From: Candidatus Zhuqueibacterota bacterium
Lineage (GTDB): Bacteria > Zhuqueibacterota > Zhuqueibacteria > Thermofontimicrobiales > Thiofontviventaceae
DNA length: 64,000 bases
NCBI GenBank assembly: GCA_016931935.1
Contig: JAFGDW010000300.1
Span: 55,274 to 119,273, forward strand
Reading direction: 5' to 3'
How positions within the stretch are numbered: position 1 is the stretch's first letter; the number at the start of each line of letters is the position of its first letter. Below the pieces are notes generated by a model. That model was not told where the DNA came from. It searched no databases and saw nothing but the letters and a program-made list of their open reading frames with translations. The position numbers and the translations under genes were made by a program. Below are positions 13,067 through 58,382 of the stretch, in pieces.

Positions 13067-13090
13067 AAATCAAATCAGATATATTTTCTG

Positions 13091-26007: not shown

Positions 26008-26646
26008 ATGGGCATTAATGAACGTCGTGAACGCGAAAAAGAACAACGCACGAACGATATTATCGATGCTGCCGAACGGGTATTCGCCGAAAAAGGGGTT
26101 AGTGCGGCAACCATGGATGACGTGGCAACTGAAGCGGAGCTAAGTAAGGGCACACTTTACCTTTATTTTAAAAGCAAAGAAGAACTGTATCGCGCCATCA
26201 ATGTCAGGGGATTTATGAAACTCATCGAATTGTTCAGGGAAGCAATTCAATCTGAATCAACGGGGCTGCAGCAGGTACGGGCAATTGGCCGAGCCTATCT
26301 GAATTATTCCAAGGATTACCCGGATTATTTTAACGCAATGCTGCATTTCGAATCCAGCGATATGGTTCCAGACTTCGAAGCTGGCAGTATCGAAGCAAAT
26401 TGTGTCGCAAAAGGACATGATGCACTGGATTTGGTCGTTGAGGCACTAAACAATGGCATTGCCGACGGCAGCATCCGCAAGGACGTGAATCCACAAAAAA
26501 CCGCTGTCATATTATGGGGATTTTGCACTGGATTCATTCAGCTTATTGCAAAGAAAGGTGAGCATTTCGAGGATTACCATCATTTGAATACAGATGATTT
26601 AATCACTGAGTCGTTTCTACTCATAAAACGTTCGTTAGAAACCTAA
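26008..26646 (+). CDS. TetR/AcrR-family transcriptional regulator
   Basis: 212 aa. N-terminal HTH (IIDAAERVFAEKGVSAATMDDVATEAELSKGTLYLYFKSKEELY). Lies directly upstream of the RND efflux genes. Confidence 0.85.
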   Translation: MGINERREREKEQRTNDIIDAAERVFAEKGVSAATMDDVATEAELSKGTLYLYFKSKEELYRAINVRGFMKLIELFREAIQSESTGLQQVRAIGRAYLNYSKDYPDYFNAMLHFESSDMVPDFEAGSIEANCVAKGHDALDLVVEALNNGIADGSIRKDVNPQKTAVILWGFCTGFIQLIAKKGEHFEDYHHLNTDDLITESFLLIKRSLET

Positions 26647-26675
26647 CATCGTAACATTTAGCCGAAGGACACACT

Positions 26676-28034
26676 ATGAAGCAGAAATTATTAACCACAT
26701 TATGTATATTGTTTATTTGTAGCACTGCCAGAGCAGATATACTTGATTCCTATATAGCTCAGGGACTATCAAACAATCTGGCGTTAAAACAAAAATCTAT
26801 TTCACTGGAGCAATCGATTCAGGCTTTACATCAGGCGCGTGGTATGTTTTTGCCATCAGTTTCATTGGATGCCCGTTATTCCCGCGCAGGCGGAGGCCGC
26901 ATGATTGAAATTCCGATTGGTGATTTGATGAATCCTGTGTACAGCACTCTGAATCAATTACTCACGCAGGTAGGGCAACCGGCGCTATTTCCGGAAAATC
27001 TACAAAATCAATCAGTGCCGTTTTTGCGGGAAAAAGAACAAGATACAAAAATCCGTGTTGTGCAGCCGTTATTTCAGCCGGCGATTTATCGGAATTATAA
27101 AATCCGCTCCGATCAACGCGGCATGCAGGAAGCAGAAGTTGGCATATTCAAACGCCAATTAATTTCGGATATTCATGAGGCGTATTTCAACTATCTAAAA
27201 ACCGTTCGAGTGGTTGCACTGTTGGATCAAACAAACAACTTATTAAAAGAGAATGTGCGTGTAAGTGAATCGCTGTTTCGGAATCAGAAAATTACTGAAG
27301 AAGGTGTGTTCAGTGCCCGCGCAGAATTGAGTGCGCTCGAACAACAGCGCGCCGATGCACAAAAATCACAAACCATGGCCGCCGCATATTTCAATTTTTT
27401 ATTGAATCGTCCATTGGATGTATCGATCGATATTCTGGACGTTGAAGCTGATAACGCATTTAAGTTAATTCCCCTGGCTGACGCTCTGGCACTGGCACGA
27501 TCACATCGCGAAGAATTTCAATTAGTGAATCACGGAATCGATGCTGCGTATCATGGCGTGCGACTAGCCGGCAGTTCATTTTTGCCTGGCGTTACCGGCG
27601 TATTTGACTATGGCTATCAGGGAGAAAAGTACAAATTCACTCCAGATGATGATTACTGGATGGCATCGGTGGTATTAAACTGGAATTTCTTTAACGGATT
27701 TCAGGATAAAGCCAAACGTAATCAGGCAGTGTTGGAGAAGACAAAGTTGGAAACTCAATTAATGGAACTGGAAAATCAAATCCAGCTTCAGGTGAAGGAA
27801 GCCCATGAGAATGTTCGGGTTGCTCAACTGGCAATTGCATCCACCAGAGATCGTGTTACAAGTGCACGCAAATCGTTCCAATTGACACAAAAAAAATATA
27901 CTCTGGGAATGGTCCCGCCAATTGAATATCGCAATGCCCGCCACGATCTAACCGAGGCAGAATTGCAGGCAATTATTGCGGTGTATGATTATCATATACA
28001 AGCAGCACGGTTTGAACGCGTGATTGCAAAGTAA
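26676..28034 (+). CDS. TolC-family outer-membrane efflux protein
   Basis: 452 aa. Signal peptide plus the two-repeat OEP architecture (Q-rich coiled coils). First gene of the efflux operon. Confidence 0.85.
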   Translation: MKQKLLTTLCILFICSTARADILDSYIAQGLSNNLALKQKSISLEQSIQALHQARGMFLPSVSLDARYSRAGGGRMIEIPIGDLMNPVYSTLNQLLTQVGQPALFPENLQNQSVPFLREKEQDTKIRVVQPLFQPAIYRNYKIRSDQRGMQEAEVGIFKRQLISDIHEAYFNYLKTVRVVALLDQTNNLLKENVRVSESLFRNQKITEEGVFSARAELSALEQQRADAQKSQTMAAAYFNFLLNRPLDVSIDILDVEADNAFKLIPLADALALARSHREEFQLVNHGIDAAYHGVRLAGSSFLPGVTGVFDYGYQGEKYKFTPDDDYWMASVVLNWNFFNGFQDKAKRNQAVLEKTKLETQLMELENQIQLQVKEAHENVRVAQLAIASTRDRVTSARKSFQLTQKKYTLGMVPPIEYRNARHDLTEAELQAIIAVYDYHIQAARFERVIAK

Positions 28035-28050
28035 ATAAAGTGTATCCATC

Positions 28051-28156
28051 GTTTCCAGCGTCCCGCTGGAAATACATAAATTGCGGCTCTGCCGCGAGTT
28101 TAAAGTTACAAGGCAGAGCCTTGATATATACGTTCCCAGCGGGACGCTGGAAACGA
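28051..28156. repeat. Nested palindromic element: two hairpin-forming 23-bp arms in inverted orientation flanking a third hairpin
   Basis: Arm cgtttccagcgtcccgctggaaa (28051-73) has its reverse complement at 28134-56 (20/20 nt identical core). Each arm is itself a 9-bp palindrome (tttccagcg/cgctggaaa). Between them sits the hairpin ggctctgcc(28086-94)...ggcagagcc(28113-21). Confidence 0.5.
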
Positions 28157-28199
28157 TTACTAATTCGAATCCAACCACTTTGTAATAAGGAGAATCTCT

Positions 28200-29255
28200 A
28201 TGAAAATTAGGGCCATTATTTTTGGTCTGACAATAATCGTAGGTATCATTATCGTCGGACTCACCATACAGGCAAAATCGGATACAACATCTGCAGATAA
28301 TACCGAAAAAATCCCGGTCAATGTAAGTCCGGTATTGCAAAAGCAATTGTCTTTTCCTATTAAAAGTAGTGGTCGGTTAGCGCCAAAATCAGAGAGTAAA
28401 CTGTCGTTTAAAATTGGCGGAATCATTCAATCGATTAATGTAGATGAAGGGCAACGTGTACAAAAAGGTCAATTGCTGGCCCAGCTTAATCAGGCAGAAA
28501 TTCAGGCAAATGTTCAGCAGGCGCAGAGTGGATTTGATAAAGCCACCCGCGATTTGCAGCGAGTAAAAAAACTTTATGCTGACAGTGTCGCCACGCTCGA
28601 GCAGGTGCAAAACGCCACGACCGGGTTGAACATTGCCGAGGCCAATCTTAACATTGCCAAATTTAATCTGCAATATGCCTCAATTCACGCGCCAATGGAT
28701 GGCACAATTCTCAAGCGATTCAACGAACCCAACGAACTTATTTCCGCAGGCATGCCGGTGATTCTATTCAGTGGGCTGAATAAGGACTGGGTCGTCCGTA
28801 TCGGCGTGAGCGACCGCGATATTCTTCGTGTGCAGCCGGGCGACTCGGCGCTGGTTACCATCGATGCGTTTCGCGATTCCATATTCACTGCACAAGTAAG
28901 CGAAATTGCCGAGGCCGCCGATCCAATGAGTGGAACATTTGAAATTGAAGTCCGGCTCGAAAATCCCTCGCTCCAATTGAAAGCAGGATTTGTGGCGTCG
29001 GTGACAATTATTCCTTCCCGAAAAGAATTGGCCTGGATTGCCCCGGTAGAAGCATTGGTCGAAGGGGAAAAAAATCGTGGATTTGTCTATGTGGTCGATC
29101 AGGATCATGCACGAAAGACACCGGTAGAAATTATACACCTGCTGGGAAAAACAATGGCGCTTAAAGCTGACTTTTCAACAACAACTCGCGTGGTTACAGA
29201 AGGCGCGCCGTACGTTACTGATCAGGCGTTGATCACGATCGCATCTAAAATGTAA
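28200..29255 (+). CDS. Efflux RND transporter periplasmic adaptor subunit (HlyD/MFP family)
   Basis: 351 aa with an N-terminal TM, coiled-coil hairpin and beta-barrel/MP domains. Between tolC and the RND pump. Confidence 0.85.
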   Translation: MKIRAIIFGLTIIVGIIIVGLTIQAKSDTTSADNTEKIPVNVSPVLQKQLSFPIKSSGRLAPKSESKLSFKIGGIIQSINVDEGQRVQKGQLLAQLNQAEIQANVQQAQSGFDKATRDLQRVKKLYADSVATLEQVQNATTGLNIAEANLNIAKFNLQYASIHAPMDGTILKRFNEPNELISAGMPVILFSGLNKDWVVRIGVSDRDILRVQPGDSALVTIDAFRDSIFTAQVSEIAEAADPMSGTFEIEVRLENPSLQLKAGFVASVTIIPSRKELAWIAPVEALVEGEKNRGFVYVVDQDHARKTPVEIIHLLGKTMALKADFSTTTRVVTEGAPYVTDQALITIASKM

Positions 29256-29426
29256 ACAAGAAAAATATCGTTCCACCGGTATCAGTCCAGGCTAAGACAA
29301 CATTTTTTTTATCAAATACAAATCCTATAATACTGGTCGAAGAGCGACCGTACTTCATTCTGCCAGAGACTGGCGGAACAAAATTAACTAAATCTTATAA
29401 TTTCACTTTTTATATACAGGTAAACA

Positions 29427-32400
29427 ATGCGACTACCAAAATTGGCAATAGAAAATTACCAGTTCACTCTCATCATAATATTGATACTGGTTTCTCTTGG
29501 AGCGGTCTCGTTTATGACCATGCCTCGCTCCGAAGATCCACAGGTTTCGCCACCGGGAGCGACAATCTTTGCAATTTATCCCGGCGCCACACCGGCCGAT
29601 CTGGAACAGCTTGTTGTCGATCCGATTGAAGAAGCGCTTAATGAACTGGACGATGTGAAGCTCATTGATTCCAATATGAAAGACGGTCTGGCGCTGACGA
29701 CAATTGAATTTGTTGTTGGTTCGAATGCCGAAAAGAAATACGACGATGTGGTACAGAAAGTCAATACTGTGCTTCCACAACTGCCCAAGGAAATCTGGCA
29801 GCTAAGCACCGTAAAGTGGTCGATTACCGATGTAAATATTCTGCAAATGGCGCTGGTGTCAGATTCTGCAAATTATTCAACACTCGAAAAAGAGGCAGAA
29901 CGACTGAAGGATATGCTGGAAAAAATCGCCGGCGTCAAACGCGTGGAAACGCTGGCATATCCCCAACAGGAAGTTCGGGTTGAACTGCGTACGGAAAAAA
30001 TGGCGCAAAACGGACTATCACTCAGTCAGGTCACCGGCGCAATTCAAGCCGCGAATATGAATATTCCCGGCGGCTACGTGGATTTAGGCAGCAAGCGCTT
30101 CAATATCCAGACCAGCGGTGATTATCAATCACTTGACGACATTCGCAACACGATTGTGCATTCCAGCGGCGCCAAATTGGTTTATCTGAAAGACATCGCC
30201 AATGTGACAATGTCATACGAAGATCAACAATATAAGGCGCGGTTTAACGGTCACCGTGCGGTGTTTGTAAATTTGAAGCAGAAGCCGCATACCAATATTT
30301 TCATGATCATTGAAAATATCGAGCAAAAGCTGGCTAAATTTAAACAGACATTGCCAGTGAATATCTCGATGCACTATGTGTTCAATCAGGCAGATAGTGT
30401 GCATCATCGCATCAGTAATTTCATTTCTAACCTGTTGCAGGGAATTGTGCTGGTCGGTGTGGTGATGTTCCTGTTTCTTAGCTTTCGCGCCTCAATGATT
30501 GTGATGATGGCAATTCCGATCTCCATACTCATCGGTATTGGTTTTGTGGACATGACCGGCTATGGACTACAGCAGATGACAATTGCCGGATTGGTGATCG
30601 TCCTGGGTATTCTGGTAGATAATGCGATTGTAGTAGCGGAAAATGTTTCCCGCTTCATCAAAATGGGCTATTCCAATATTGAAGCTGCTGTGGAAGGCAC
30701 AAAACAGATTGGCTGGGCGATTGTCAGCGCAACTGCAACAACGTTGCTGGCATTCGTGCCAATTATGATGATTGGTGATATGACCGGAGACTTCATCCGT
30801 AGCATGCCGGTGACAGTTGTATATACATTAAGCGCATCGTTACTGGTCGCACTTATTTTTACACCATTTCTGGCTAGCCGTTTTCTAAGCGCTAATAAAA
30901 TCCAGCATGGGAATCGCGTCCAAAACAGTATGATGAAATTTGTCGAGGGACCATACAGAAAAACGCTGAAATATGCATTGGGTCATCGCAAGCTCGTGAT
31001 CATTTTGGCATTAGTTGCATTTATGCTTAGTTTACTATTATTTAAAGTGGTCGGCACCAGCCTGTTTCCCAAGGCTGAAAAACCACAATTTCTGATTAAT
31101 ATCCAAACTCCGCAGGGCACCAATCTGGACCGAACCGGAGAGATTGCCACGAACGTTGAATCCTTACTTCTGGCGCGTGATGACGTGGAACGGGTCGCGA
31201 CGAATATCGGGCATAGCAATCCGCGCATCTACTACAACATTGCAGAGGAACGGGAACAGAGCACGCATGCTCAGCTTTTCATTCAATTAAAGAAATACAA
31301 TCGAAAGCGGATGGCAGCGACGATCGATGCACTTCGTGCCACGTTTAAAACATGGCCCGGCGCCGTTATCGAAGTGAAGGAATTGGAACAAGGCCCGCCG
31401 GTGGAAGCGCCGGTTGCCGTGAAAATAATTGGCCCCAATCTGGATGAACTACGGCAATATGCCCTCACGGTTGAAAAAATTGTACGCAGCGCTGAAGGTA
31501 CCGTGAATGTGAAAAATCCGCTACAGACAAACAAAACCGATTTGCATGTGGACATCAATCGGGAGAAAGCCGGCCTGTTTGGTGTGCCGTTGGTGGAGAT
31601 CGACCGAACCGTGCGCACCTGCCTGACTGGCATGCCAGTGTCGATTTATCGCGATGCTAATGGCGATGATTACAACATCGTACTGCGATTGCCGATTGAA
31701 GGATCACCACAGTTGAGTGATTTTGACCGGATATTTGTATCGTCCCTGACAGGTACACAAATTCCACTGAAACAGTTGGCTACCATCGAGTTCATCGAGA
31801 GTCCGATGGAGATCAATCATTTCAAGCTTGAGCGTGATGTGACCATCACCGCGGATGTGATGAGTGGCTACCTCGTCAGCGATGTAACGCAGCAGGTCGT
31901 TTCCAAACTGGATGACATTAAATTGGCGCCGGATTATCGGTTTCACATTGGCGGCGAGCAGGAGCATCAACAGGAAGCATTTGGCGGCATGATGAAGGCG
32001 ATTATCATTGCAGCGATTGGCATTATTGGCGTGCTCGTATTGCAATTCCGGTCGTTCTTACAACCGATGATTGTGATCACGGCGTTTCCGTTGGCCATTA
32101 TCGGCGCAACGCTGGCGTTGTTGATTACCGGTTACAGTTTTTCATTCACCGCGTTTGTCGGATTAGCCAGTCTCGTTGGCATTGTAGTTAACAATTCGAT
32201 CATTCTGGTTGATTATACAAATCAATTGCTTGCTCAGGGCCGCAGCATCGATGATGCAGTGCAGGAGGCCGGCGAAACCCGCTTCCGTCCGATTGTACTC
32301 ACCACAGGCACTACTATCGGTGGCTTACTACCACTCACGTTAAGTGGCGGCACACTCTGGGCGCCGATGGGCTGGGTAATTATCGGAGGCCTCACTGTTT

Positions 32401-32468
32401 CAACGATTTTGACGTTGGTGATTGTGCCGGTGTTGTACAAAATATTTACACCAAATGGTTCTCGATAA
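29427..32468 (+). CDS. Efflux RND transporter permease (AcrB/CzcA superfamily)
   Basis: 1013 aa with 12 TM and two large periplasmic loops; canonical RND architecture. Confidence 0.9.
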   Translation: MRLPKLAIENYQFTLIIILILVSLGAVSFMTMPRSEDPQVSPPGATIFAIYPGATPADLEQLVVDPIEEALNELDDVKLIDSNMKDGLALTTIEFVVGSNAEKKYDDVVQKVNTVLPQLPKEIWQLSTVKWSITDVNILQMALVSDSANYSTLEKEAERLKDMLEKIAGVKRVETLAYPQQEVRVELRTEKMAQNGLSLSQVTGAIQAANMNIPGGYVDLGSKRFNIQTSGDYQSLDDIRNTIVHSSGAKLVYLKDIANVTMSYEDQQYKARFNGHRAVFVNLKQKPHTNIFMIIENIEQKLAKFKQTLPVNISMHYVFNQADSVHHRISNFISNLLQGIVLVGVVMFLFLSFRASMIVMMAIPISILIGIGFVDMTGYGLQQMTIAGLVIVLGILVDNAIVVAENVSRFIKMGYSNIEAAVEGTKQIGWAIVSATATTLLAFVPIMMIGDMTGDFIRSMPVTVVYTLSASLLVALIFTPFLASRFLSANKIQHGNRVQNSMMKFVEGPYRKTLKYALGHRKLVIILALVAFMLSLLLFKVVGTSLFPKAEKPQFLINIQTPQGTNLDRTGEIATNVESLLLARDDVERVATNIGHSNPRIYYNIAEEREQSTHAQLFIQLKKYNRKRMAATIDALRATFKTWPGAVIEVKELEQGPPVEAPVAVKIIGPNLDELRQYALTVEKIVRSAEGTVNVKNPLQTNKTDLHVDINREKAGLFGVPLVEIDRTVRTCLTGMPVSIYRDANGDDYNIVLRLPIEGSPQLSDFDRIFVSSLTGTQIPLKQLATIEFIESPMEINHFKLERDVTITADVMSGYLVSDVTQQVVSKLDDIKLAPDYRFHIGGEQEHQQEAFGGMMKAIIIAAIGIIGVLVLQFRSFLQPMIVITAFPLAIIGATLALLITGYSFSFTAFVGLASLVGIVVNNSIILVDYTNQLLAQGRSIDDAVQEAGETRFRPIVLTTGTTIGGLLPLTLSGGTLWAPMGWVIIGGLTVSTILTLVIVPVLYKIFTPNGSR

Positions 32469-33626: not shown

Positions 33627-35093
33627 ATGACACATAATATATCAACAATTGACTATAGCCGTAAATGGTGGGTGATGGCCGTATTAGGCATGGGAATATT
33701 TTTAGCAACGATCGATGGCAGTATCGTCAACATTGCTTTACCAACATTAGTAAAACAGTTCGACGCACGGTTTGAAACTGTACAATGGGTGGCGCTAAGT
33801 TACATGCTTACGCTGGCTACACTAATGCTTAGTATAGGCCGGCTAGCGGATATGGTTGGGAAAAAACCAATTTACTTTATTGGAATGATTTTATTCACAC
33901 TGGGCTCTTTAATGTGTGGGCTTTCACAGACTATCTACCAATTAATTGCGTTTCGTATATTTCAAGCCATAGGCGCTTCCATGATGTTGGCGCTGGGTAT
34001 TGGTATTTTGACAGAATCGTTTCCGCCACAAGAACGTGGCAAAGCCCTGGGAATTTCGGGCGCAATTGTTTCCATCGGTATCATTCTCGGCCCAACACTT
34101 GGTGGTATGCTTATCGATCTGATTTCATGGCACTGGATTTTCTTTGTCAATCTGCCAATCGGGATTGTTGGCTCTTTTATGGTCATTCGTATTCTCCCGA
34201 ATACGAAAGGTGCAGCCGGCCAAAAATTTGATTTTCCGGGCGCTGTAGCACTTTTTGTCAGTTTACTGGCGTTTCTGTTGGCGCTAACAGTTGGACAAAA
34301 AATTGGCTTCACCCATCCGATTATTCTAAGCTTGTTGGGAACCTGGTTCATCTTTTTCATTATATTTCTTGTCGCGGAAATTAAAACCAATCATCCGATG
34401 GTCGACCTGCGGCTGTTTCGCAATCAATTGTTCAGCCTCAGCCTGTTTACCGGCTTTATCACATTCGTCTGTACCGGGGGCATTGTGTTGCTCATGCCAT
34501 TTTATCTGGAAAATGTGCTGCACTACGATCCCCATCAGGCAGGCTTACTGATGGCCATTGTCCCGGTCAGCGCCGGAATTATCAGTCCACTATCAGGATC
34601 GTTGTCAGATCGATTTGGCACCCGGCCCGTAGCAATTGTCGGATTGATCTTTATGCTTATCGGCTATTCAAGTCTGCTCAGTCTAAGCGCCACAACAACA
34701 ACCATCGGCTATTTGATCCGATTTTTCCCGGTCGGATTGGGCATCGGTGTTTTCCAATCTCCAAACAACAGCGCCATTATGGGCACTGCCTCAAAAGAAA
34801 AATTGGGCGTTGTTTCCAGCTTGCTTTCGCTCACGCGCACACTCGGTCAAACTTCCGGCATTGCCGCGCTTGGTGCGTTCTGGGCATTCCGCGTTGCCGC
34901 CCATTCACATCAGGCATTCGATTTCAGCGCCGCCAATACCGATCCAATTGCTCAGGTCTCCGGCCTATTTGATACATTTATCATTGCGGTCGGGTTTACG
35001 GCGATTGCCCTGGCGTTAAGTGTAATCAGTTGTGTACGGGAAAAGGCCTGTGTTATTGGGAAATCCATGATTGTTGATGGGGCGGTTTCGTAG
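33627..35093 (+). CDS. MFS transporter, DHA2 (14-TMS drug:H+ antiporter, EmrB/QacA-like)
   Basis: 488 aa, 14 predicted TMs. MFS motif A region GRLADMVGKK. Confidence 0.8.
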   Translation: MTHNISTIDYSRKWWVMAVLGMGIFLATIDGSIVNIALPTLVKQFDARFETVQWVALSYMLTLATLMLSIGRLADMVGKKPIYFIGMILFTLGSLMCGLSQTIYQLIAFRIFQAIGASMMLALGIGILTESFPPQERGKALGISGAIVSIGIILGPTLGGMLIDLISWHWIFFVNLPIGIVGSFMVIRILPNTKGAAGQKFDFPGAVALFVSLLAFLLALTVGQKIGFTHPIILSLLGTWFIFFIIFLVAEIKTNHPMVDLRLFRNQLFSLSLFTGFITFVCTGGIVLLMPFYLENVLHYDPHQAGLLMAIVPVSAGIISPLSGSLSDRFGTRPVAIVGLIFMLIGYSSLLSLSATTTTIGYLIRFFPVGLGIGVFQSPNNSAIMGTASKEKLGVVSSLLSLTRTLGQTSGIAALGAFWAFRVAAHSHQAFDFSAANTDPIAQVSGLFDTFIIAVGFTAIALALSVISCVREKACVIGKSMIVDGAVS

Positions 35094-35461
35094 TTATATT
35101 GCAATGATATTCCATTATGAATATTCCGGTAGAGAAAATTCATACCATATCCAGTTTCCCTATCCTCCCAACAAATCTCATATCCACCAATCGCCAAATA
35201 AGGCATTCCCAAATCGATAATAGTTTATAATTTTATCCAACATCTTCAGGTAATTCTTTCATCTATCTTCTGCCATACGGACGTTTCCTCCATTAATTAA
35301 AAAATCTTCATTTTGTTCAACAATTGTTATTTTTTCAATTCGAAAAACGATGAAGTATAAATGGAAGCATATCCGAATTACCAAATCAATGTCGGTTTCT
35401 GCAATTTTTTCTTGTGGGAAGCAGAACTGCTTATTTACTAATCAGAGGAGGCGCTACGATC

Positions 35462-38400
35462 ATGCAACAGTACAAAAAATTATTCATAATTACTCTTGTG
35501 TTATTGAGCACGATATTTTCAATGCAGATTGCGCTGGTTGCCCAGGGACAGCCACCGGAGTCGCCCAAAGGCCCGATGGGCATCCCCTTTATGCTTGCAT
35601 TTATGCCTGGCGACAGTGCTAAAATCCCGGTTGAATTTTTTGAATCCGTACCTGCCGATTCGCAGGTCAGCGGTTTTGCCTTTACGTTAGTAAAGAATTC
35701 CAGTGATCTTAAATTTCACGGAGTTGACACAGCAGCTACTGCGCTGAGCCATTGGACAGTTGATTACACCATGTCTGGTGACTCAATTCGAGTACAAGCA
35801 AACGCTCCGGGTGGAGTTTACTTTACGAAACCAGACGGCCCTCCAGCATTGCTTTGTGCTATCCGAGGCATGATCTATCAGGGCGCTGCCGTAGGTGACA
35901 GCATTGGCCTGCAGATTCGCCATGTGTCGATAGTAAAGAAGGGCCAGACGGTGGCGCTACCGGATTCAATGTTTGGCCCATCGATGATAAAATTACAGAC
36001 AGGCGATACTCCTCCACAGCCAGGAAATACAATCGCGTTTACATTTCTCGATACCCAATCGTGGCCTGATTCCAGCTTTAGCATTGATTTTGCCGTTACC
36101 GAGCCGGTTCCTGCGGATTCACAGGTTAGTCGCATTCGCGGAGTGATGGAAGCGATACCAAACGAAGTCATGTGGTCCAGCAGCGAAAGCATGTTGTCGC
36201 CCCAATTCAGTGGCTGGTCACTTATCGTTACACCCGAAAGCGGCCTCGTTGAGTTCGATCTCGAAGCGCCGAATGGAACATATCTCGTCCATGATGGGAA
36301 CGATCCATTTGTTATCTTCAGTCTTGGTGGGAATATATTGTCAACATCGATGCCCGGGACTAATATTGAAGTGCAAGCAGACCGATTATTTCTGACAATT
36401 AAAGGTACAGAATTGGTGACGGATCCGGATAAGGTGCATTCCGGTTTTATCAAGATCATGGGCGATGAACCGCCTCCACCTCCGCCGGGGAACGAATTGT
36501 CATTTTCGTTTGGCCATAGCTTTTCCAAACCGGACTCAGGCTTTGGTTTGGATTTCATGATAACGCAACCGATTCCCGCTGATTCCCAACTTATTCGAAT
36601 TCATGCGAAAGTTGTTGCCAATCCGACCGAGGTCATTTGGACATCCAACGGTCAAATTTTGGCGCCTGAATTATCAAATTGGGCATTAGACATCATCCCC
36701 GGTGATGAATTTGTCGAATTCGAATTAATGTCTATCGATGGTTCCCCGCTTGTGCATGATGGGCAAGATCCATTTATTGTGTTTAATCTTACGGGCGTCG
36801 TTAAGGGTTACGCCACTCCGGATCATGCGATTGAAGTAGTCGCAACTGAACTCGAGCTTGAAGTCAATAATAAAGTCGTAACTGCCGATCCACAAATAAT
36901 CATGCCCGGCAAAATTATGTTGGATGATGGCGAAAATCCGCCTCCACCACCCGATCACGGATACTTATTTTCGTTTAATGAAGCCATATCGGACCCCGGA
37001 TCTTATTTTAATTTAATGTTCGCGTTAACAAGCCCGGTGCCACCGGATTCGCAATTAAGCCGTATCCGCATGGTTGTGCAGAGCATGCCGCCAGCGTTAA
37101 ACTGGGCCGAAACAGGGCATTCACTTCAACCAATTATGAGTGATTGGACATTAACGGTGACACCGGGACCGGAAGCCACCGAATTTGATCTTGTCGCTCC
37201 GCCGGGCGTTTTCCTGGCAACTGATTCATCCATGTCTGGGTTGAATTTAGTTCTGTTTAGCGGTGAAGTCGCACCAGATGCGCCGGCTCAGGGGATGGTT
37301 GATGTTCAGGCCAAAGAACTGTTCCTGACACTCAATGGCGTCGAAAAGACGATCGATCCGATAACTGTTCAACCGGGAAAAGTTTTACTCGGCAATGGCG
37401 AAGAACCACCACCAGGGCAACAATCCCTGTTTGCATTTTTCGATACATTCTCCAAACCGGATTCCAACTTTGCAATGGAATTTGCCATTACACAACCAAT
37501 TCCCGCCGACTCACAGTTAAGCCGGATTTGTGCAGTCGTTCGGGCGATGCCACAGGAGCTGGATTGGTCGCCAACCGGGCACATGCTAGCACCAGGCATG
37601 GAAAGCTGGAGCTTGAATGTAACGGTAGGCAATGATTCGATGATGTTCGATATCCAGGCGCCAACCGGCCAATTCATCACACATGATGCGATGGTGCCGC
37701 TCGTGCTTGCAACATTCGTGGGGGGTGTTCGCCCGTCAGCATCGGTTGAACAGAATATTGAAGTCAAAGCGGAAAATCTAAAGCTGACCATCAAGGGTAT
37801 AGAACATGAGTTTGATCCCGGAATGATTCAACCGGGCAAAGTGCGGTTGAATAATAATCCCGATGGTCCGCCACCGGGAGGGGAATCACTGTTCATATTC
37901 TTCGATACAAACGCTGAACCCGGAACTGATTTTCTGCTTGATTTTGCCGTTGCCATGCCGGTTCCGGCAGATTCAGAAATTAGTCGCTTACAGATCGGCT
38001 TAAAAATTGAACCGAATTTATTGGTGTGGAACGCCGATGAATCAAAAGTCGCCGAGGAGCTTGCGGATTGGACGCTTACATCCACTGCGGCAGGAGATTC
38101 AATGGAGTTCGATTTGCAGTCGACAAGTGGCAGCTTTCTGGTGCATGATGGATTCGATCCATATCGGATTGCTACGTTAGCCGGTTCTGTTCAGGCAAGC
38201 GCACCACAAAATGCCATTATTCAATTAACAGCGACAAAAATTTATGTAACTATGCACGGTGTTGTAACATCAATACCACCGACGTCCATCCCCCCGGTAA
38301 AAATTATGCTCGGTGGTCATGTTGGTCCACCTCCGCCGCCTCCACCGCCTCCGCCTCCAACACCAATTTCATCGGGCGATGGCCGCATGAATCTTGGATT

Positions 38401-40858
38401 ATACGGCGGTTCGGTAGCAGATATGGCCTACGATGAAGTACACGACATCGTTCTGGCAGCATTGAGCGCGCCGCAATCCGTATTTATTTCCGCTGACAGT
38501 GGTTTAACCTGGACGGCTGCATTCCCATATGATTCGTTGGAATTCTGGACCGGCCAGGAACGTCGCGGCTTTGGTGGCCGGGCTGACCAGGTACAAGCTT
38601 CCCTCGGATATTGTTATGCCAAAACCAGTCAGGAAGCTGGTACACTTACCGGTTCCCAGGTATCGTTTGATGGTATTAACTGGAAAACCCTGCTTGATCC
38701 ATACATGGTTGGCAATCTGTTAGGTACAACTTTTCCGGGACAAGCCAATGGTCAATATGCCATCGGCTCACTGTCAACGTATGGCCCGGTAGCGCTTGTA
38801 AGCGCGATGAATTTCGTATTTCGCACTACTGACGCCGGACAAACGTGGGATATTAGTGTCGTGCCAAATTCAACGGCATTTAATACAGATAAAACCATCA
38901 CGACAGTCGAATTATGTCGGGATGATCCGACGGGGCGCAGTTTTTATGTGGTGTTAACCGGTAATAACGGCTCATCCAATCCGGAATTCTATCGCACCCA
39001 TGATGGGGTTGATTTCAGTCGAATCTTTATCGTCTCCGGCGCTGATACAGTTCACAACGTTATGGGCATCACAACACATCCGTATGCCAGCGATACTTTA
39101 TGGGCAGCAGCTGTTGATGAAGGCAAGCCGACACTCGGCGGATTGTGGCGATCATACGACGCCGGAGCCAATTGGACAATGATTTACCCGGGCGGGAATC
39201 CCCATAATGCACCAATGGCAACAATTTATGAAGACATCAGCTATCCGGGACCAAATAATCTCCGAATTTTCATTGTCGGCGAAAACAAATATTCTGACGA
39301 TTTAGGCACCACCTGGGTAGAATTCAGTCCGCAAACTGATCCATATGTAGATCGTGGATCAAACGCCAGAGCGGGTATCGGTCATGTGACCAACACCGAT
39401 ATTTATTTTGCCATGGGTGACGGTGCGCCATCGCGCTCAACGACGGGTATTGATGGCTACTATCTGTTTGTGCCAACCGGACTTGAAGGCATAAATATCT
39501 GGGACATTGCCCAGGTACCTAACCAGGTTGATAAAGTCTATCTGGCAACAAGTGTCGGTATTGCCTATACATCCGAGTTTACGAATACCGCATTAACTTC
39601 CACGCAAAAATGGGCATCACCCTATGGCAATTATCCGATCAATCCGGCGCAAGGCGGTAATACCGGATTTACTGCGATTGAAATTGATCCGAACAATACG
39701 TTGCATGTTGTGGCAGCCAATGGCAATGCAATTTTTGTAACGATGAACGGCGGCTTTACCAATAACGATTGGGATGCCACCCAATATAGCGAAGTTAGCG
39801 GATTGGACGAATCCGAGTTTAAAGGACGTGGCGGCCAGGTCAGCCAGATTACATTTATCACCAGCGACACGTTGATCGCCTCTGTATTTTGTGAACATTC
39901 GCTTTATGGCGTGCTCATGCAAAGCACCGATGGTGGCTACACCTGGTCAACAATGCCACAAGCCGGTGAACATGCGTTCCGTACTGTTATTGCCGCGTGG
40001 AATAGTGCACAGGATTCGGTTGTGCTCTATGCCGGTGGAGGCCATGTTACAGAAGATGTGTTTACTCATGCCACCCTGATCGATTCGGGTGCAGTCTATC
40101 GTTCCGAAGATCGGGGCGCGACATGGTCACAAGTCTCCACGGCTCCACATGGTGTATTCAATCCCGCGCCGTATCCGTTGCCGATTAACAATATGATGGC
40201 AAAACCGGGCAGCCTGGATACGCTGTACATGGCGTGCGGTGAAAATTTGAGCAATGCCATTGTCCGAACGTTTGACGGTGGCGTCACGCTCGAATCGTTG
40301 AGCATGGCCGCAGTCGGCATGTTTGAGGGCGCGTTTGAAGCGGTGGCGATCAACAAGAATCATCCCGATAGCGTGTACTTTGCCGTTCGTCGTGATATTT
40401 TGGTGTACGATGCTGCTTCAAACACCACAGCCACAATGTTCCGCGGCTACCCGGGTGAATTGACCCACGCATTGTTATTTGATGAGTTGACAATGGGATC
40501 ATCATCCGGTTTCTACCAATTGACAGCGCCAACGAATACCGATCCCAGTGCGCTTGATGGTAAGAAAGCAACAATTCCGACACGAGTGGAACTGGCGCAG
40601 AACTATCCGAATCCGTTTAATCCATCTACCAGCATTATTTTCTCACTACCGCAGGACGGTAACGTGAAGCTGGAAGTATTCAACCTGATCGGCCAGCGAG
40701 TCGCCACGCTGCTTTCCGAACCACGGAAAGCCGGTGAACATCGCATCAGCTACCAGGCGGATGATCTGGCCAGCGGTATCTATTTCTATCGGCTACAGGT
40801 CACCTTTGCCAACGGACAGAAGCGAATTCTGTCGAAGAAGTTGATGGTGATCAAGTAG
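35462..40858 (+). CDS. Giant secreted protein: N-terminal Ig/cohesin-like domain, 5 tandem ~155-aa novel repeats with poly-Pro linkers, BNR/Asp-box-like beta-propeller region, and a T9SS type-A C-terminal sorting domain
   Basis: Start set at MQQYKK (signal peptide; AGGAGG RBS at ~35444). Repeats span aa 206-975 of the track ORF with a conserved F.F......PDS.F...FA.T.P.PADSQ.SRI core, ...LVHDG.DPF... and IEV.A..L.L. Followed by PPPPPPPPPPPTP. Then six or more SxDxGxTW Asp-box motifs (SADSGLTWT, TTDAGQTWD, SYDAGANWT, SDDLGTTWV, STDGGYTWS, SEDRGATWS). C-terminus QNYPNPFNPSTSIIFSLPQDGNVKLEVFNLIGQRVATL...SGIYFYRL matches the Por-secretion CTD signature. Confidence 0.8.
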   Translation: MQQYKKLFIITLVLLSTIFSMQIALVAQGQPPESPKGPMGIPFMLAFMPGDSAKIPVEFFESVPADSQVSGFAFTLVKNSSDLKFHGVDTAATALSHWTVDYTMSGDSIRVQANAPGGVYFTKPDGPPALLCAIRGMIYQGAAVGDSIGLQIRHVSIVKKGQTVALPDSMFGPSMIKLQTGDTPPQPGNTIAFTFLDTQSWPDSSFSIDFAVTEPVPADSQVSRIRGVMEAIPNEVMWSSSESMLSPQFSGWSLIVTPESGLVEFDLEAPNGTYLVHDGNDPFVIFSLGGNILSTSMPGTNIEVQADRLFLTIKGTELVTDPDKVHSGFIKIMGDEPPPPPPGNELSFSFGHSFSKPDSGFGLDFMITQPIPADSQLIRIHAKVVANPTEVIWTSNGQILAPELSNWALDIIPGDEFVEFELMSIDGSPLVHDGQDPFIVFNLTGVVKGYATPDHAIEVVATELELEVNNKVVTADPQIIMPGKIMLDDGENPPPPPDHGYLFSFNEAISDPGSYFNLMFALTSPVPPDSQLSRIRMVVQSMPPALNWAETGHSLQPIMSDWTLTVTPGPEATEFDLVAPPGVFLATDSSMSGLNLVLFSGEVAPDAPAQGMVDVQAKELFLTLNGVEKTIDPITVQPGKVLLGNGEEPPPGQQSLFAFFDTFSKPDSNFAMEFAITQPIPADSQLSRICAVVRAMPQELDWSPTGHMLAPGMESWSLNVTVGNDSMMFDIQAPTGQFITHDAMVPLVLATFVGGVRPSASVEQNIEVKAENLKLTIKGIEHEFDPGMIQPGKVRLNNNPDGPPPGGESLFIFFDTNAEPGTDFLLDFAVAMPVPADSEISRLQIGLKIEPNLLVWNADESKVAEELADWTLTSTAAGDSMEFDLQSTSGSFLVHDGFDPYRIATLAGSVQASAPQNAIIQLTATKIYVTMHGVVTSIPPTSIPPVKIMLGGHVGPPPPPPPPPPPTPISSGDGRMNLGLYGGSVADMAYDEVHDIVLAALSAPQSVFISADSGLTWTAAFPYDSLEFWTGQERRGFGGRADQVQASLGYCYAKTSQEAGTLTGSQVSFDGINWKTLLDPYMVGNLLGTTFPGQANGQYAIGSLSTYGPVALVSAMNFVFRTTDAGQTWDISVVPNSTAFNTDKTITTVELCRDDPTGRSFYVVLTGNNGSSNPEFYRTHDGVDFSRIFIVSGADTVHNVMGITTHPYASDTLWAAAVDEGKPTLGGLWRSYDAGANWTMIYPGGNPHNAPMATIYEDISYPGPNNLRIFIVGENKYSDDLGTTWVEFSPQTDPYVDRGSNARAGIGHVTNTDIYFAMGDGAPSRSTTGIDGYYLFVPTGLEGINIWDIAQVPNQVDKVYLATSVGIAYTSEFTNTALTSTQKWASPYGNYPINPAQGGNTGFTAIEIDPNNTLHVVAANGNAIFVTMNGGFTNNDWDATQYSEVSGLDESEFKGRGGQVSQITFITSDTLIASVFCEHSLYGVLMQSTDGGYTWSTMPQAGEHAFRTVIAAWNSAQDSVVLYAGGGHVTEDVFTHATLIDSGAVYRSEDRGATWSQVSTAPHGVFNPAPYPLPINNMMAKPGSLDTLYMACGENLSNAIVRTFDGGVTLESLSMAAVGMFEGAFEAVAINKNHPDSVYFAVRRDILVYDAASNTTATMFRGYPGELTHALLFDELTMGSSSGFYQLTAPTNTDPSALDGKKATIPTRVELAQNYPNPFNPSTSIIFSLPQDGNVKLEVFNLIGQRVATLLSEPRKAGEHRISYQADDLASGIYFYRLQVTFANGQKRILSKKLMVIK
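35546..38340 (+). repeat. Tandem in-frame coding repeats (~465-480 bp unit, ~6 copies counting the diverged first domain) inside the giant CDS
   Basis: Periodic protein motif (PADSQ[VL]SRI) recurs every ~155 aa. Units are separated by Pro-rich linkers (PPPPPPGN, PPPPPDHG, EPPPGQQ, GPPPGGE, PPPPPPPPPPPTP). Diverged at ~30-40% aa identity, so ancient rather than recent duplications. Confidence 0.6.
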
Positions 40859-40868
40859 TATAGTTTAA

Positions 40869-40901
40869 TTGGCAAGCGGGAGATTTTCTTCCGCTTGCCA
40901 A
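40869..40901 (+). terminator. Perfect 11-bp hairpin immediately after the giant CDS stop
   Basis: ttggcaagcgg(40869-79)/ccgcttgccaa(40891-901). No clear T-run, so possibly rho-dependent or an RNA-stability element. Confidence 0.35.
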
Positions 40902-41020
40902 TACCCCAACTATCTCAAAGAACTCCAACTTCAATAGTTAAATAATTTCACCTTGATTTTCTCCTAACTTTTTCGTAATATTACCGAATCCTTCCCTACA
41001 CTTAATCTAAAAAAAACTTC

Positions 41021-41057
41021 ATTGAATTTTGAGTTTTGAATGTTGAATTTTGAATGG
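41021..41057. repeat. Left inverted repeat of the four-helix-bundle gene cassette (ttgaatg / gttttgaat-rich)
   Basis: attgaattttgagttttgaatgttgaattttgaatgg. Its imperfect reverse complement lies at 41511-41543. Confidence 0.5.
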
Positions 41058-41130: not shown

Positions 41131-41484
41131 ATGAAAGACAATATTATTCGGGATAGAAGTTTTGAATTTGCATTGGCGATTATTAATCTCTACCAGTCAC
41201 TGATCTAAGATAAGGAATTTGTGTCGTCCAAACAACTACTTCGAAGTGGGACAAGTATAGGGGCAAACATTGAAGAATCAGGTGCCGCCCAAAGCAAGCG
41301 GGATTTTCTATCAAAAATGTCAATTGCCTCAAAAGAAGCGCGAGAAGCAAAGTATTGGCTACGATTATTGAACGAAAACAAATTAATCCAAATTAATGTC
41401 GATGAATATCTCGGTGAAATTGATCAGATTATAAATATCTTGACCAGAATTGTCAAAACAACATCACAAAATTTAAAAAATTAG
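41131..41484 (+). pseudogene. Four-helix-bundle protein (TIGR02436; '23S rRNA intervening-sequence protein' family) interrupted by an in-frame TAA at 41206..41208
   Basis: Reading from the ATG at 41131 gives MKDNIIRDRSFEFALAIINLYQSLI*DKEFVSSKQLLRSGTSIGANIEESGAAQSKRDFLSKMSIASKEAREAKYWLRLL... The family-defining LLRSGTSIGANI..E..G..SK.DF and KEARE..YWL motifs are intact on both sides of the stop. The ORF track only reports the downstream GTG-initiated fragment 41221..41484. Confidence 0.6.
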
Positions 41485-41551: not shown

Positions 41552-42775
41552 ATGTCTAAGCAACTTCGCACTCTCTACGACAACGAAAATGCAGTCTCAT
41601 TCCTCATTTGCATGCTCATTTTCGGTATATCGGGCGGACTAAACTCCGGATCGCTGAATAATTACCTGCACGAGGTATTGGCTATTTCCCAGGTGGAACG
41701 TGGTATAGTGGAATTCCCACGGGAACTACCAGGCTTACTGCTAATGTTCATCATCGCCATTCTGTCACGATTTTCCGAGCTGAAAGTCATGAATTTCGCG
41801 TTGCTGATTTCCATGACCGGCATGATCGGTCTGGGATTTGTGGGTGATACACGAACGATGGCCATTGTCTCCATCATTCTTTTCAGCACCGGTGAGCACA
41901 TGTTGATGCCGATCAAACAATCGGTTGCCATGCACATGGCACGAAATGGCAAGGAAGGGTTGGCCATGGGCGGTGTCAGCAGCCTGGAAAATATCGGACA
42001 ATTGATTGGGCAATACACGATTCCCGTACTATTTTTGATTGTTGGTTTTATCATCCCAGGCGTCAGTGTTTATGGAAAATTCCGCCATGTATTTCTGCTG
42101 GCTGCCATCGTGCTGTTTGGCGCGTTTGTCATTGCGTCACGAATCCGTGAAACCCATGGACATATCGAACGAAAGAAAATTTATTTTCGGAAGAAATTCA
42201 CCAAATACTATATTCTGGAAATGTTCTTTGGCGCACGTAAACAGGTATTTCTCACATTCGCACCGTATGTGCTGGTTCTAAATTATGGGGCAAAAACCGA
42301 ATACGTAGCATTTCTCTACGGCTTGTGGTCGTTTATCAACATTTTTCTTGGTCCGTTAATGGGACGACTGATCGACAGGCTTGGCTATAAACTTATCATT
42401 GTAATCGATACGATTGTGCTTGTCGGATTGTGCTTCCTGTACGGATTTAGTCATCGTTTATTCCCACATCCGATTGCATTTGCTATCATATCCGTTGTGT
42501 TTGTGCTCGATGCTATTTTATTCATGGTCGGCATGGCGCGGGCAGTGTATGTGAAATCAATTTCCAATTCGAAAGCAGAAATCACTACCGTACTTTCAAC
42601 CGGCGTTTCCATCAATCATGTGGTTAGCATTGCGATTGCTATTGCTGGTGGTATTATCTGGCAAAAAATCGGAATCGAAGGCTTATTTTCGTTGGCGGCA
42701 GTATTTGGAATTGGGTCATTTTTATTTGCATTGACATTGCCTTCACCAAGCACAATTTCAGCAATACGGTCATGA
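41552..42775 (+). CDS. MFS transporter (12 TMS)
   Basis: 407 aa. 12 hydrophobic segments and MFS-like loop motifs. Confidence 0.75.
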   Translation: MSKQLRTLYDNENAVSFLICMLIFGISGGLNSGSLNNYLHEVLAISQVERGIVEFPRELPGLLLMFIIAILSRFSELKVMNFALLISMTGMIGLGFVGDTRTMAIVSIILFSTGEHMLMPIKQSVAMHMARNGKEGLAMGGVSSLENIGQLIGQYTIPVLFLIVGFIIPGVSVYGKFRHVFLLAAIVLFGAFVIASRIRETHGHIERKKIYFRKKFTKYYILEMFFGARKQVFLTFAPYVLVLNYGAKTEYVAFLYGLWSFINIFLGPLMGRLIDRLGYKLIIVIDTIVLVGLCFLYGFSHRLFPHPIAFAIISVVFVLDAILFMVGMARAVYVKSISNSKAEITTVLSTGVSINHVVSIAIAIAGGIIWQKIGIEGLFSLAAVFGIGSFLFALTLPSPSTISAIRS

Positions 42776-54970: not shown

Positions 54971-56473
54971 CTATTGCCCCAATACTTCAAATTCTATTTT
55001 GGAACGACGCAAGCCCTTGGCGGTCACAACGATTGAATTGAATCCCGGCTCGGTATTCAGTGTGAAATAACTTTTGGCATATCCGTTTGAATCGGTTTGT
55101 GCAACATAACTATTGCGATTGCCCGGGAAGTACCCTTTCCCCATTTTGACTTTAAAAAGCACAGTTTCATTGGGAATCGGATTCTTGAAACAATCGAGTA
55201 ACTGGACAACAAACGGTTCACCAATTTCCCGACCTGCGGGTAAATTTTGATGATTCCCGGATACATATTTTAGCTCGGATGGATCTGCCGGACGCCCCAG
55301 TGCTTCAAACTGGACAAATTTACCGTTATTGTTCAGCCGGGCATTCACAATATTAGTACCGGCAACATTGCCCAGTGTCAGATATGTTTCCGCCAGCCCT
55401 GCTTCATCGGTCAAAATTTCTTCAACTTTATTGCCGTTTTTAAATGTACCGTTGCCATTTTCAATTTTGAAAGTAACCAGTTGATGGATCATACTGTTTC
55501 CGTCTTCATCGTGTACTTTTACCTGCAACGGTTTTTTAAGACGTGTATTCACGGGCGCCGCCTGATGATCTCCGGCCAGCGGTGCAATTGTCAGGTGCTT
55601 CGGCACGGATTCCGGTTCCGGCGTGACTTTTTTCTCGGAAGTAAATAAGTTCTCATCTTCAAAATCATTAATCTCTGCTGCTTCATGTTGCGGCGCTTGA
55701 TAGCGGAAACCTTGTTGCTGGGAGATGAGCAACCGCAATCTCAATTCTTCACCTTTAGTCAGAATCGTATCCATCTGTTTGCGAAATGCACCCTGCAATT
55801 GGGTTGAGAAAAAATTCAAAACAATACTGACGACCAATCCCATCAACGTGGTGACGAGCGCCAGTCCCATTCCATGGAGTATCACTTGATTGTCGAGATT
55901 TCCACGGAAAAATGTAACGAACATTCCCCAGACAGTTCCCAACAAACCGAGCGCCCCGGCGGTATCCGATAAGAACGATATTTTCGATTGGAATGTGCTG
56001 AATTTATCCTGCTGTAACTGAACATGATTGGTTATTTCGTAATGGGCATCGACCGCCGAATTTGTCGAGCGATACACATTCAGCATGTTCATGTATAGCT
56101 GATGGAGTAAATTATTCGGTGTATTTTGTACTGTCTGTTCGATATGCCGGAGCGATGCCGCTTTTGTATTCAATTCTAGAATATCTTTTGATCGGCGTTT
56201 GTCCATAAGTAAATCGGCATATCTGTAAAGCATTGTGGCTAAGCCAGCGACCAAAACCAGGATAATCACCCAGCGTAATCCACCAGCCAGTCGGGTGATT
56301 TCCCAAATCGATTTAAAATCGGATAACCGGGTTAAAGAGCCGGGATCGACCACTTGAGCAGCGGCAACATCGAGCGTCGAATCGATTGCTGCTGCCGCCG
56401 GGGCGTCCTGGCAGAATCCTTGTGAAGTCACAAGGATTATAAACATCATGAATAGAAATGCAACGCGCTGCAT
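54971..56473 (-). CDS. MotA/TolQ/ExbB proton-channel family protein with a ~230-aa C-terminal extension containing two Ig-like (Big/invasin-like) domains
   Basis: Start at MQRVAF (signal peptide). Three TMs with the ExbB signature AGALGLLGTVWGMFVTFF / GMGLALVTTLMGLVVSIVLNFF. C-terminus LQVKVHDEDGNSMIHQLVTFKIENGNGTF...EILTDEAGLAETYLTLGNVAGTNIV... and a second similar unit ...TVLFKVKMGKGYF...AQTDSNGYAKSYFTL...NSIVVTAKG resemble Big_1-type beta-sandwiches. Confidence 0.7.
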   Translation of the reverse strand: MQRVAFLFMMFIILVTSQGFCQDAPAAAAIDSTLDVAAAQVVDPGSLTRLSDFKSIWEITRLAGGLRWVIILVLVAGLATMLYRYADLLMDKRRSKDILELNTKAASLRHIEQTVQNTPNNLLHQLYMNMLNVYRSTNSAVDAHYEITNHVQLQQDKFSTFQSKISFLSDTAGALGLLGTVWGMFVTFFRGNLDNQVILHGMGLALVTTLMGLVVSIVLNFFSTQLQGAFRKQMDTILTKGEELRLRLLISQQQGFRYQAPQHEAAEINDFEDENLFTSEKKVTPEPESVPKHLTIAPLAGDHQAAPVNTRLKKPLQVKVHDEDGNSMIHQLVTFKIENGNGTFKNGNKVEEILTDEAGLAETYLTLGNVAGTNIVNARLNNNGKFVQFEALGRPADPSELKYVSGNHQNLPAGREIGEPFVVQLLDCFKNPIPNETVLFKVKMGKGYFPGNRNSYVAQTDSNGYAKSYFTLNTEPGFNSIVVTAKGLRRSKIEFEVLGQ

Positions 56474-56489
56474 GTCAATCTCCTTAATT

Positions 56490-58193: not shown

Positions 58194-58240
58194 AATTAGT
58201 ACTTGAAACGTACAATTGTTCTATCAATTTCTGTGCATGG

Positions 58241-58357
58241 ACATCCCCCTGATTCCATCTCGCTGCCCGCAAGCGGGGCGAGGTAGAATATTCCCCCTTC
58301 GAAGGGAGACGATCTCATTTCGCCGCTTGCGGCAACGAAACGGGATCAGGGGGATGT
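58241..58357. repeat. Compound palindromic element in the adhesin-porP spacer
   Basis: Outer 13-bp inverted repeat acatccccctgat(58241-53)/atcagggggatgt(58345-57). It encloses three internal palindromes: ctcgctgcccgcaagcggggcgag, cccttcgaaggg and gccgcttgcggc. Confidence 0.45.
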
Positions 58358-58382
58358 TCGCACTAAACAATTTTAAACTTCA

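Follow-up and report, generated by a model that had tools for sequence, protein, structure and literature searches.

Cellulosomes are organised around cohesin-dockerin assemblies, which also serve as a widely used toolkit for protein engineering and have been catalogued almost entirely by sequence profiles. Cohesins are protein-binding modules, and the units of one classical scaffoldin are usually near-identical and bind one type of dockerin. In clostridial scaffoldins such as CipA from Acetivibrio thermocellus (type I cohesin structures 1AOH, 1OHZ and 3KCP), tandem cohesin-fold jelly rolls of ~150 amino acids (aa) are separated by Pro-rich linkers and accompanied by one non-catalytic substrate-related module, a CBM3, in a chain displayed on the cell surface via a type II dockerin/SLH. 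A different means of anchoring has been predicted in 'Ca. Stygibacter' (Cloacimonadota), in which a large, non-catalytic scaffoldin with tandem cohesins carries a C-terminal sorting domain (CTD) for a type IX secretion system (T9SS) (Williams et al. 2021, PMC8542988). In this report, we focus on a gene at positions 35462..40858 of the + strand in a 64,000-nucleotide (nt) stretch, hereafter the window, of contig JAFGDW010000300.1 from a Candidatus Zhuqueibacterota bacterium. We propose, with about even confidence, that its 1798-aa product is a T9SS-displayed, scaffoldin-like surface protein that combines an array of docking sites with a non-catalytic substrate-binding module.

Comparison with these systems highlights both similarities and differences. 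Like clostridial scaffoldins, the window protein has tandem ~150-aa units with a predicted cohesin fold, for which clostridial type I cohesins are the best structural matches, as well as Pro-rich linkers, one presumably non-catalytic substrate-related module and probable cell-surface display. Unlike in clostridial scaffoldins, the host is Gram-negative, the anchor is a T9SS CTD rather than a type II dockerin/SLH, the units have no Pfam Cohesin match and are far from near-identical, the partner module is a double propeller resembling glycoside hydrolase family 74 (GH74) rather than a CBM3, and no dockerin partner was found in the regions searched (see below). With the 'Ca. Stygibacter' protein it shares a host from the Fibrobacterota-Chlorobiota-Bacteroidota (FCB) group, tandem cohesins and a CTD for surface attachment, but the cohesins of that protein are recognised by InterPro, occur with CBM2/CBM3 and are matched by dockerin-bearing enzymes in the same genome (PMC8542988), whereas those of the window protein are cryptic and their partner module is GH74-like. 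Non-cellulosomal cohesins from Clostridium perfringens (NagH/NagJ/GH33; 2VO8, 2W1N, 2O4E) and Archaeoglobus fulgidus (2XDH) are likewise found on glycosidase-type proteins outside a cellulosome, but usually as one cohesin with a known dockerin-like (FIVAR/Doc) partner, in contrast to six in tandem here. The three parts of the window protein—cohesin fold, GH74-type propeller and T9SS CTD—are each known, but their combination has not been described before, and neither Pfam nor NCBIfam has an entry for this cohesin sequence family.

The domain architecture of the protein is secure. From N to C terminus, there is a signal peptide, six ~155-aa units with Pro-rich linkers, six Asp-boxes and a type-A CTD, encoded as follows.

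35447..35451, + strand: Shine-Dalgarno-like GGAGG, read directly, 10 nt before the ATG at 35462
35462..35542, + strand: Sec-type signal peptide, aa 1-27, MQQYKKLFIITLVLLSTIFSMQIALVA followed by QG (by inspection: KK in the n-region, hydrophobic core, A-x-A-like LVA site)
35549..36019, + strand: unit R0, aa 30-186, 'A-type', diverged, predicted cohesin fold (BLASTP E 3e-4 to 2e-10 against R1-R5)
36020..36487, + strand: unit R1, aa 187-342, 'B-type', with a PPPPPP linker at its end, predicted cohesin fold (domain E 3e-63 with the hidden Markov model, HMM, of the unit)
36488..36952, + strand: unit R2, aa 343-497, predicted cohesin fold, the unit chosen for modelling
36953..37414, + strand: unit R3, aa 498-651, predicted cohesin fold (BLASTP between units, unit HMM)
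37415..37876, + strand: unit R4, aa 652-805, predicted cohesin fold (BLASTP between units, unit HMM)
37877..38326, + strand: unit R5, aa 806-955, predicted cohesin fold (BLASTP between units, unit HMM)
38327..38359, + strand: poly-proline linker of 11 consecutive Pro, aa 956-966, after R5 (CCN triplets)
38411..39319, + strand: N-terminal half of the GH74-like Asp-box double propeller, about aa 984-1286 (AlphaFold2 model, Foldseek, hhalign)
39392..40444, + strand: C-terminal half of the GH74-like double propeller, about aa 1311-1661 (AlphaFold2 model, Foldseek, hhalign)
40604..40855, + strand: T9SS type-A CTD, aa 1715-1798 (TIGR04183 and PF18962), followed by the stop codon at 40856-40858

An identical protein, also of 1798 aa, is deposited at NCBI as MBN2012369.1 from a 159-kb contig of a candidate division KSB1 bacterium, where it is labelled only 'T9SS type A sorting domain-containing protein'. 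This agrees with the reading frame and length given in the original prediction, an earlier reading of this DNA from its letters alone. While the listed open reading frame (ORF; 35414..40858, + strand) opens with a GTG and would yield 1814 aa, we prefer the ATG at 35462 because of the GGAGG lying 10 nt upstream. The protein has both ends expected of T9SS type-A cargo, a class to which the original prediction had rightly assigned it on account of a Por-secretion CTD. Inspection of aa 1-27 identifies a Sec signal peptide in which no lipobox Cys is present, and the C terminus scores above cut-off with both TIGR04183 (35.1 bits for a cut-off of 23, E 9.4e-9) and PF18962 (30.1 for a cut-off of 27), each at aa 1715-1789.

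The first important finding is that the units, for which no named domain had been recognised in the original prediction beyond a guess that they might be cohesin- or Ig-like, are predicted to adopt a cohesin fold. Cutting the N-terminal 955 residues at proline runs, which set the unit borders, yields the five clear repeats and diverged first copy previously noticed. All six are mutually homologous by BLASTP, which counts in favour of a cohesin fold; R1-R5 are pairwise 31-46% identical (E 1e-27 to 1e-43), while R0 shows 18-23% identity to the others, which is still significant. The Pro-rich linkers, likewise anticipated together with the 11-Pro run, are runs of three to six Pro at the ends of R1-R4 (aa 337-342, 493-497, 649-651 and 803-805); they resemble scaffoldin linkers, which also counts for this reading. 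No Pfam or NCBIfam model matches aa 1-955, whether the whole protein or single units are searched. The AlphaFold2 model of R2, which follows the original prediction's advice to model one repeat and was built from an alignment of the six window units and four units of the homolog P0001, has a predicted local distance difference test score (pLDDT) of 90.1 and a predicted template modelling score (pTM) of 0.83. It is an all-β sandwich of about nine to eleven strands, with the nine-stranded flattened β-jelly-roll of ~140-150 aa that characterises cohesin modules. Its structural matches include type I cohesins of CipA, OlpA, ScaB and ScaC, which are the best, along with Ruminococcus type III cohesins and the non-cellulosomal ones from C. 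perfringens and Archaeoglobus. Because these matches are cohesins, the unit is probably a cohesin-type jelly roll closest to type I. Its description as novel holds for the sequence family but not for the fold. In all 34 units of the family, both A- and B-type, there is little or no variation at the P-x-D-S and Trp positions, which points to strong structural or functional constraint. A cupin match in PDB (3d82, E 7e-5 with the six-unit profile) was dismissed as spurious, since it falls to E 0.05 with a 34-unit profile and contradicts the predicted fold.

The second finding is that the Asp-box region is a GH74-type double propeller that has most likely lost GH74-type catalysis. At least six Asp-boxes had been noticed and attributed to a BNR/Sortilin-Vps10-like propeller. 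Six are present, at aa 1010, 1122, 1231, 1278, 1488 and 1548—four strict S.D.G.TW motifs and two variants—and the Asp-box propeller stands, but it is of GH74 rather than Sortilin type. The AlphaFold2 model of aa 967-1713 (pLDDT 73, pTM 0.55) shows two halves with a total of ~14 four-stranded blades and, between them, a connecting segment of poor prediction quality; each half matches seven-bladed propellers over ~255 aa, and there is a ~50-aa insertion relative to GH74 (model residues 177-227). In a Foldseek search of PDB, the top 18 matches are all GH74, full-length, with 750-830 aligned columns and E 1e-20 to 5e-16, although their template modelling (TM) scores are only 0.33-0.44, owing to the model's uncertain inter-domain geometry. 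Searching PDB sequences with a HMMER profile of the family gave GH74 xyloglucanases (E 1.6e-12 to 6e-7) and Sortilin (E 4e-4). The resulting GH74 alignments, short Asp-box blade stretches in inconsistent register, were discarded in favour of hhalign, for which the propeller family alignment was trimmed to the window sequence and compared with an alignment of genuine GH74 genes, recovered from plasmids by tblastn and carrying RTDMGGAYR and GD.GGF motifs. This gave a probability of 99.2% in local and 99.7% in global mode (E 5e-26), in register from N to C terminus, at an identity to GH74 of 14-20%. With ~740 aa and two seven-blade-sized Asp-box halves, as in GH74 xyloglucanases and OXG-RCBH (2CN2, 6MGL, 5FKQ, 1SQJ), the region is, as modelled and by profile comparison, a GH74 homolog with a tandem seven-bladed double propeller.

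Sortilin/Vps10 proteins share the Asp-box β-propeller and a marginal Pfam match (PF15902, 33.8 bits for a cut-off of 33, at aa 1544-1641, covering profile positions 2-86 of 446). Sortilin, however, has a single ten-bladed ring and a Cys-rich 10CC module, whereas the window protein has two seven-blade-sized halves, no 10CC and only four Cys in 747 aa. Together with the weaker profile match (E 4e-4 against 1.6e-12 for GH74), this led us to reject a Sortilin identity.

The window propeller differs from GH74 enzymes in lacking both Asp motifs, RTD[IM]GG and GD.xGF. The motifs were located by aligning the N-terminal one to OXG-RCBH residues 4-83, which gives D35 in RTDIGG (1sqj/2ebs), and the second to GDVSGF/GDLVGF of solved GH74 structures; we take the catalytic role of D35 and D465 to be established in the GH74 literature, and the PDB title of 2EBS names a D465N mutant. 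In both local and global hhalign alignments, the first Asp (D35 of 1sqj) corresponds to Ser1056 in YAKTSQEAG (aa 1052-1060), a segment conserved in the propeller family, and the ~30-aa GH74 segment with the second (D465 of OXG-RCBH) is gapped opposite SEFKGRGG (aa 1451), leaving no aligned residue. Two residues beyond the lost Asp is Glu1058, which P0017, the most distant ortholog, does not conserve in this column. Because both GH74 catalytic aspartates are missing, the propeller is most likely a pseudo-enzyme.

A word-indexed homolog search with the repeat region found a single relative, P0001, and HMMER with a ten-unit profile, run on the full set of 1.84 billion 50%-representatives, identified three true proteins that share one architecture; four weak extra hits, P0005-P0008, were rejected as unrelated repetitive proteins, some SdrD-B-like, matching over short stretches. 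Seeding with the propeller gave about a dozen relatives. From a search seeded with part of OXG-RCBH, nothing but short eukaryotic fragments came back. GTDB species genomes, when scanned, yielded nine loci with titles naming candidate division KSB1 (three), 'Bacteroidetes bacterium HyVt-473', 'uncultured Cytophagia' or an unclassified 'bacterium', and P0004 is labelled Calditrichaeota. The orthologs come from KSB1, Calditrichota-like and unclassified metagenome-assembled genomes, and have zero to six units, always N-terminal to the same propeller. Counts made by running the HMM of the unit on six-frame ORFs from every locus put the window protein first (six units), followed by L001, L003, L010, P0003 and P0004 (four each), L004 and L005 (three) and L009 and L011 (two). 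L006, L007 and L008 have at least one to two units in genes cut by a contig end, L017 has two, with a third further upstream in an ORF of a different frame, and L018 and L019 have none; P0009-P0011 and P0018 are full-length orthologs without units. Outside the orthologous gene, no ORF in the window, L003-L011 or L017-L019 has a unit.

There are two types of unit. The A-type unit is orthologous between species (45-54% identity), R0 being 45-49% identical to the first unit of other family members, while B-type units duplicate within lineages, with pairs at 98% (L004), 59% (L005) and 51% (P0001) identity. The order is A-B-B-B-B-B in the window, A-B-B-B in P0001 and A-B-A-B in P0003 and P0004. In five of the six orthologs compared, identity to the window protein is 34-43% in the cohesin region, 55-70% in the propeller and 48-68% in the CTD, and in P0017 it is 28%, 42% and 45%, respectively. 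The propeller is thus the core that the family conserves, while the cohesin array is an add-on that evolves fast and varies in copy number. In L004 (3365-7438, + strand), the adjacent units at aa 209-365 and 368-523 are the 98% identical pair, the product of a tandem duplication that is very recent, which shows that copy number continues to change within the family. In L017, the extra unit of P0012 lies in an ORF (9118-9924, + strand) in a different frame from the gene (10001-13414), probably because of a frameshift/pseudogenisation or a sequencing error, and the annotated start is probably wrong.

How might such a protein work? What we infer is surface anchoring, glycan binding and partner recruitment. 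In Bacteroidota, the CTD of type-A cargo is cleaved and the new C terminus is attached to the cell surface. By analogy, the window protein would be exported by Sec, translocated by the T9SS, relieved of its CTD and tethered to the outer membrane through its new C terminus, with the GH74-like double propeller beside the cell and the six cohesin-fold modules pointing outward on stiff Pro-rich linkers. If Bacteroidota-type anchoring holds, the array is distal to the anchor because the CTD is C-terminal, and would be the exposed end of the molecule rather than a stalk lifting the propeller. The propeller would most likely bind a glycan rather than cut it, and the cohesin-fold modules would most likely mediate protein-protein or ligand binding, as docking sites. 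With tandem predicted cohesins, Pro-rich linkers and a CTD as cell-anchoring device, the protein has the make-up of a scaffoldin, for which the CTD-bearing 'Ca. Stygibacter' scaffoldin offers a predicted precedent from another phylum of the FCB group, and a scaffoldin-like model is the most economical because cohesins bind proteins and the array would be outermost.

Several observations weigh against this model. The cohesin assignment comes solely from predicted structure: Pfam Cohesin (PF00963) matches none of the six window units or 34 units family-wide at E <= 10, neither the six-unit nor the 34-unit profile finds a cohesin among PDB sequences, and hhalign of the units against three CipA cohesins gives a probability of 4.3% (E 0.009), the alignment being in the expected register (PG-D/S-x-V-x-IPV, V/I-P loop before strand 3, A-P-x-G before strand 8). 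At 31-46% identity, the units are far more diverged than in classical scaffoldins, and the array would seem dispensable for the core function because unit-free orthologs exist. Dockerin-type Ca-binding loops, sought with both a strict and a loose pattern, are absent from the ORFs of the 64-kb window and of ~122 kb of L003-L011, and no dockerin or cohesin Pfam family is recorded for called genes at L017-L019, in a search that covered the window and about 175 kb of ortholog flanks, not the remaining genome. Finally, the loss of catalytic residues is read from a profile alignment at ~20% identity and a medium-confidence model (pLDDT 73, pTM 0.55). Many of these points fit a passive adhesin or spacer, in which the units would have no specific protein partner, acting as an Ig-like extension for reach or avidity or binding substrate or cells directly, while the propeller does the real work. 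This is possible, and somewhat doubtful in our view: copy number that is free from zero to six among orthologs, units that evolve much faster than the propeller and diverge strongly within one protein, and the lack of a nearby dockerin in the regions searched all suit it, but a C-terminal anchor would put the array distal to the propeller, leaving no role as a stalk, and the (near-)invariant P-x-D-S and Trp positions across 34 units count against it as a mark of strong constraint, structural or functional. A plain adhesin or extension role carries weight comparable to that of the scaffold model, and an active enzyme carries less.

The enzyme, which we consider unlikely, would be a glycoside hydrolase, GH74-like or a related endo-glucanase, using different catalytic residues, with the units as accessory CBM- or X-module-like parts. 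In its favour are the clear homology to GH74, the strong conservation of the propeller (55-70% for most orthologs, 42% for P0017), its numerous invariant Asp and Glu residues, the closeness of Glu1058 to the first lost position and, 3 kb downstream, a gene of the GHL10 glycosidase-like kind. Against it, neither GH74 catalytic Asp is matched in local or global HMM-HMM alignment, the column of Glu1058 varies in P0017, and no glycan-utilisation neighbourhood is conserved in 12 ortholog loci. A mis-assembly that inflated or collapsed the number of units, a risk that the original prediction had raised, is excluded in practice. It had to be considered since the source is a metagenome-assembled genome and tandem protein repeats are classically hard for assemblers. 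However, exact DNA matches between units reach 14 nt at most and BLASTN detects no similarity for most pairs, TRF finds no ~465-nt or other long-period tandem DNA repeat in the gene, where the CCN run of the poly-Pro linker is the sole DNA-level tandem repeat, and 6570 nt (window 34487-41056) recur with 100% identity in a Logan contig from SRR13394437, which another assembler produced. The earlier view that the units are modules rather than products of recent slippage was right, and they are old and diverged. Beyond the scaffoldin-like model itself, a bolder version seems improbable to us: a cryptic, profile-invisible cohesin family would build a Gram-negative, T9SS-anchored surface complex in KSB1 and related sediment bacteria, with each diverged unit recruiting a different partner (non-dockerin or a highly diverged dockerin), a dead GH74 propeller targeting the complex to its substrate, and zero to six units tuning its size between lineages.

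KSB1 bacteria are common in marine and hydrothermal sediments, and no literature was found linking KSB1 or Calditrichota with cohesin, dockerin or T9SS. A predicted cohesin-fold family wholly missed by sequence profiles, fused to a putative GH74-derived pseudo-enzyme for T9SS display in this uncultured phylum, provides a lead for cohesin biology in uncultured Gram-negative lineages. If the units recruit partners, scaffoldin-type surface complexes reach another FCB-group lineage, with up to six mutually diverged, possibly orthogonal, binding modules in one protein. If they do not, the protein simply joins the other modular T9SS adhesins, and what is mainly gained is a corrected annotation.

On either side of the gene are intergenic stretches of 368 nt and 693 nt, beyond which lie MFS (major facilitator superfamily) transporter genes, with an efflux cluster of the RND (resistance-nodulation-division) type further upstream, and an isochorismatase and the GHL10 glycosidase-like gene downstream. 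None of its neighbours is conserved in the 12 ortholog loci, so it is a solitary unit. Other features of the window are listed below.

5364-11913, - strand: BamA and TamB pair
26008-32468, + strand: TetR-OEP-HlyD-AcrB RND efflux operon
33627-35093 and 41552-42775: MFS transporter neighbours
41221-41484, + strand: 87-aa ORF (...SIGANIEES...EAKYWLRLL...) in the 693-nt gap after the gene
54971-56506, - strand: unusual MotA/ExbB-Big_1 fusion protein
56490-58193, - strand: PorP/SprF homolog
58383-63305, - strand: second T9SS cargo, 1640 aa, with CarboxypepD_reg, Big_5, CARDB and a type-B CTD (CHU_C)

The RND operon and the BamA/TamB pair, which are ordinary envelope genes of Gram-negative bacteria, confirm that the host is diderm. 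None of the core T9SS genes porK/L/M/N, sov, porU and porV is seen within the 64-kb window, but a T9SS is plausibly present in the organism because the window has a PorP/SprF homolog and a second CTD cargo. These belong to a second T9SS locus (54971-63305, - strand), in which the PorP/SprF homolog and the MotA/ExbB-Big_1 fusion lie downstream of the type-B cargo. No Rfam match and no tRNA was found in the window, and promoter and terminator scans gave background levels. There is a perfect 12/12 sigma-70 consensus on the minus strand at 41456-41428, inside the 87-aa ORF, whose product seems to resemble the 'four-helix-bundle / 23S rRNA intervening-sequence' protein family. Long antisense ORFs run within the gene (35878-36558, 37369-37794 and 39617-39922, all - strand), some with antisense 'homologs' in ortholog loci; they were rejected as genes, being shadow ORFs of the conserved sense frame. 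At L019 (1-5773 and 14019-18209), the zero-unit ortholog P0011 is found amid multihaem cytochrome genes, some with T9SS CTDs (Cytochrome_C7 / MtrC-like plus Por_Secre_tail), which suggests T9SS-exported extracellular electron-transfer proteins in a related organism.

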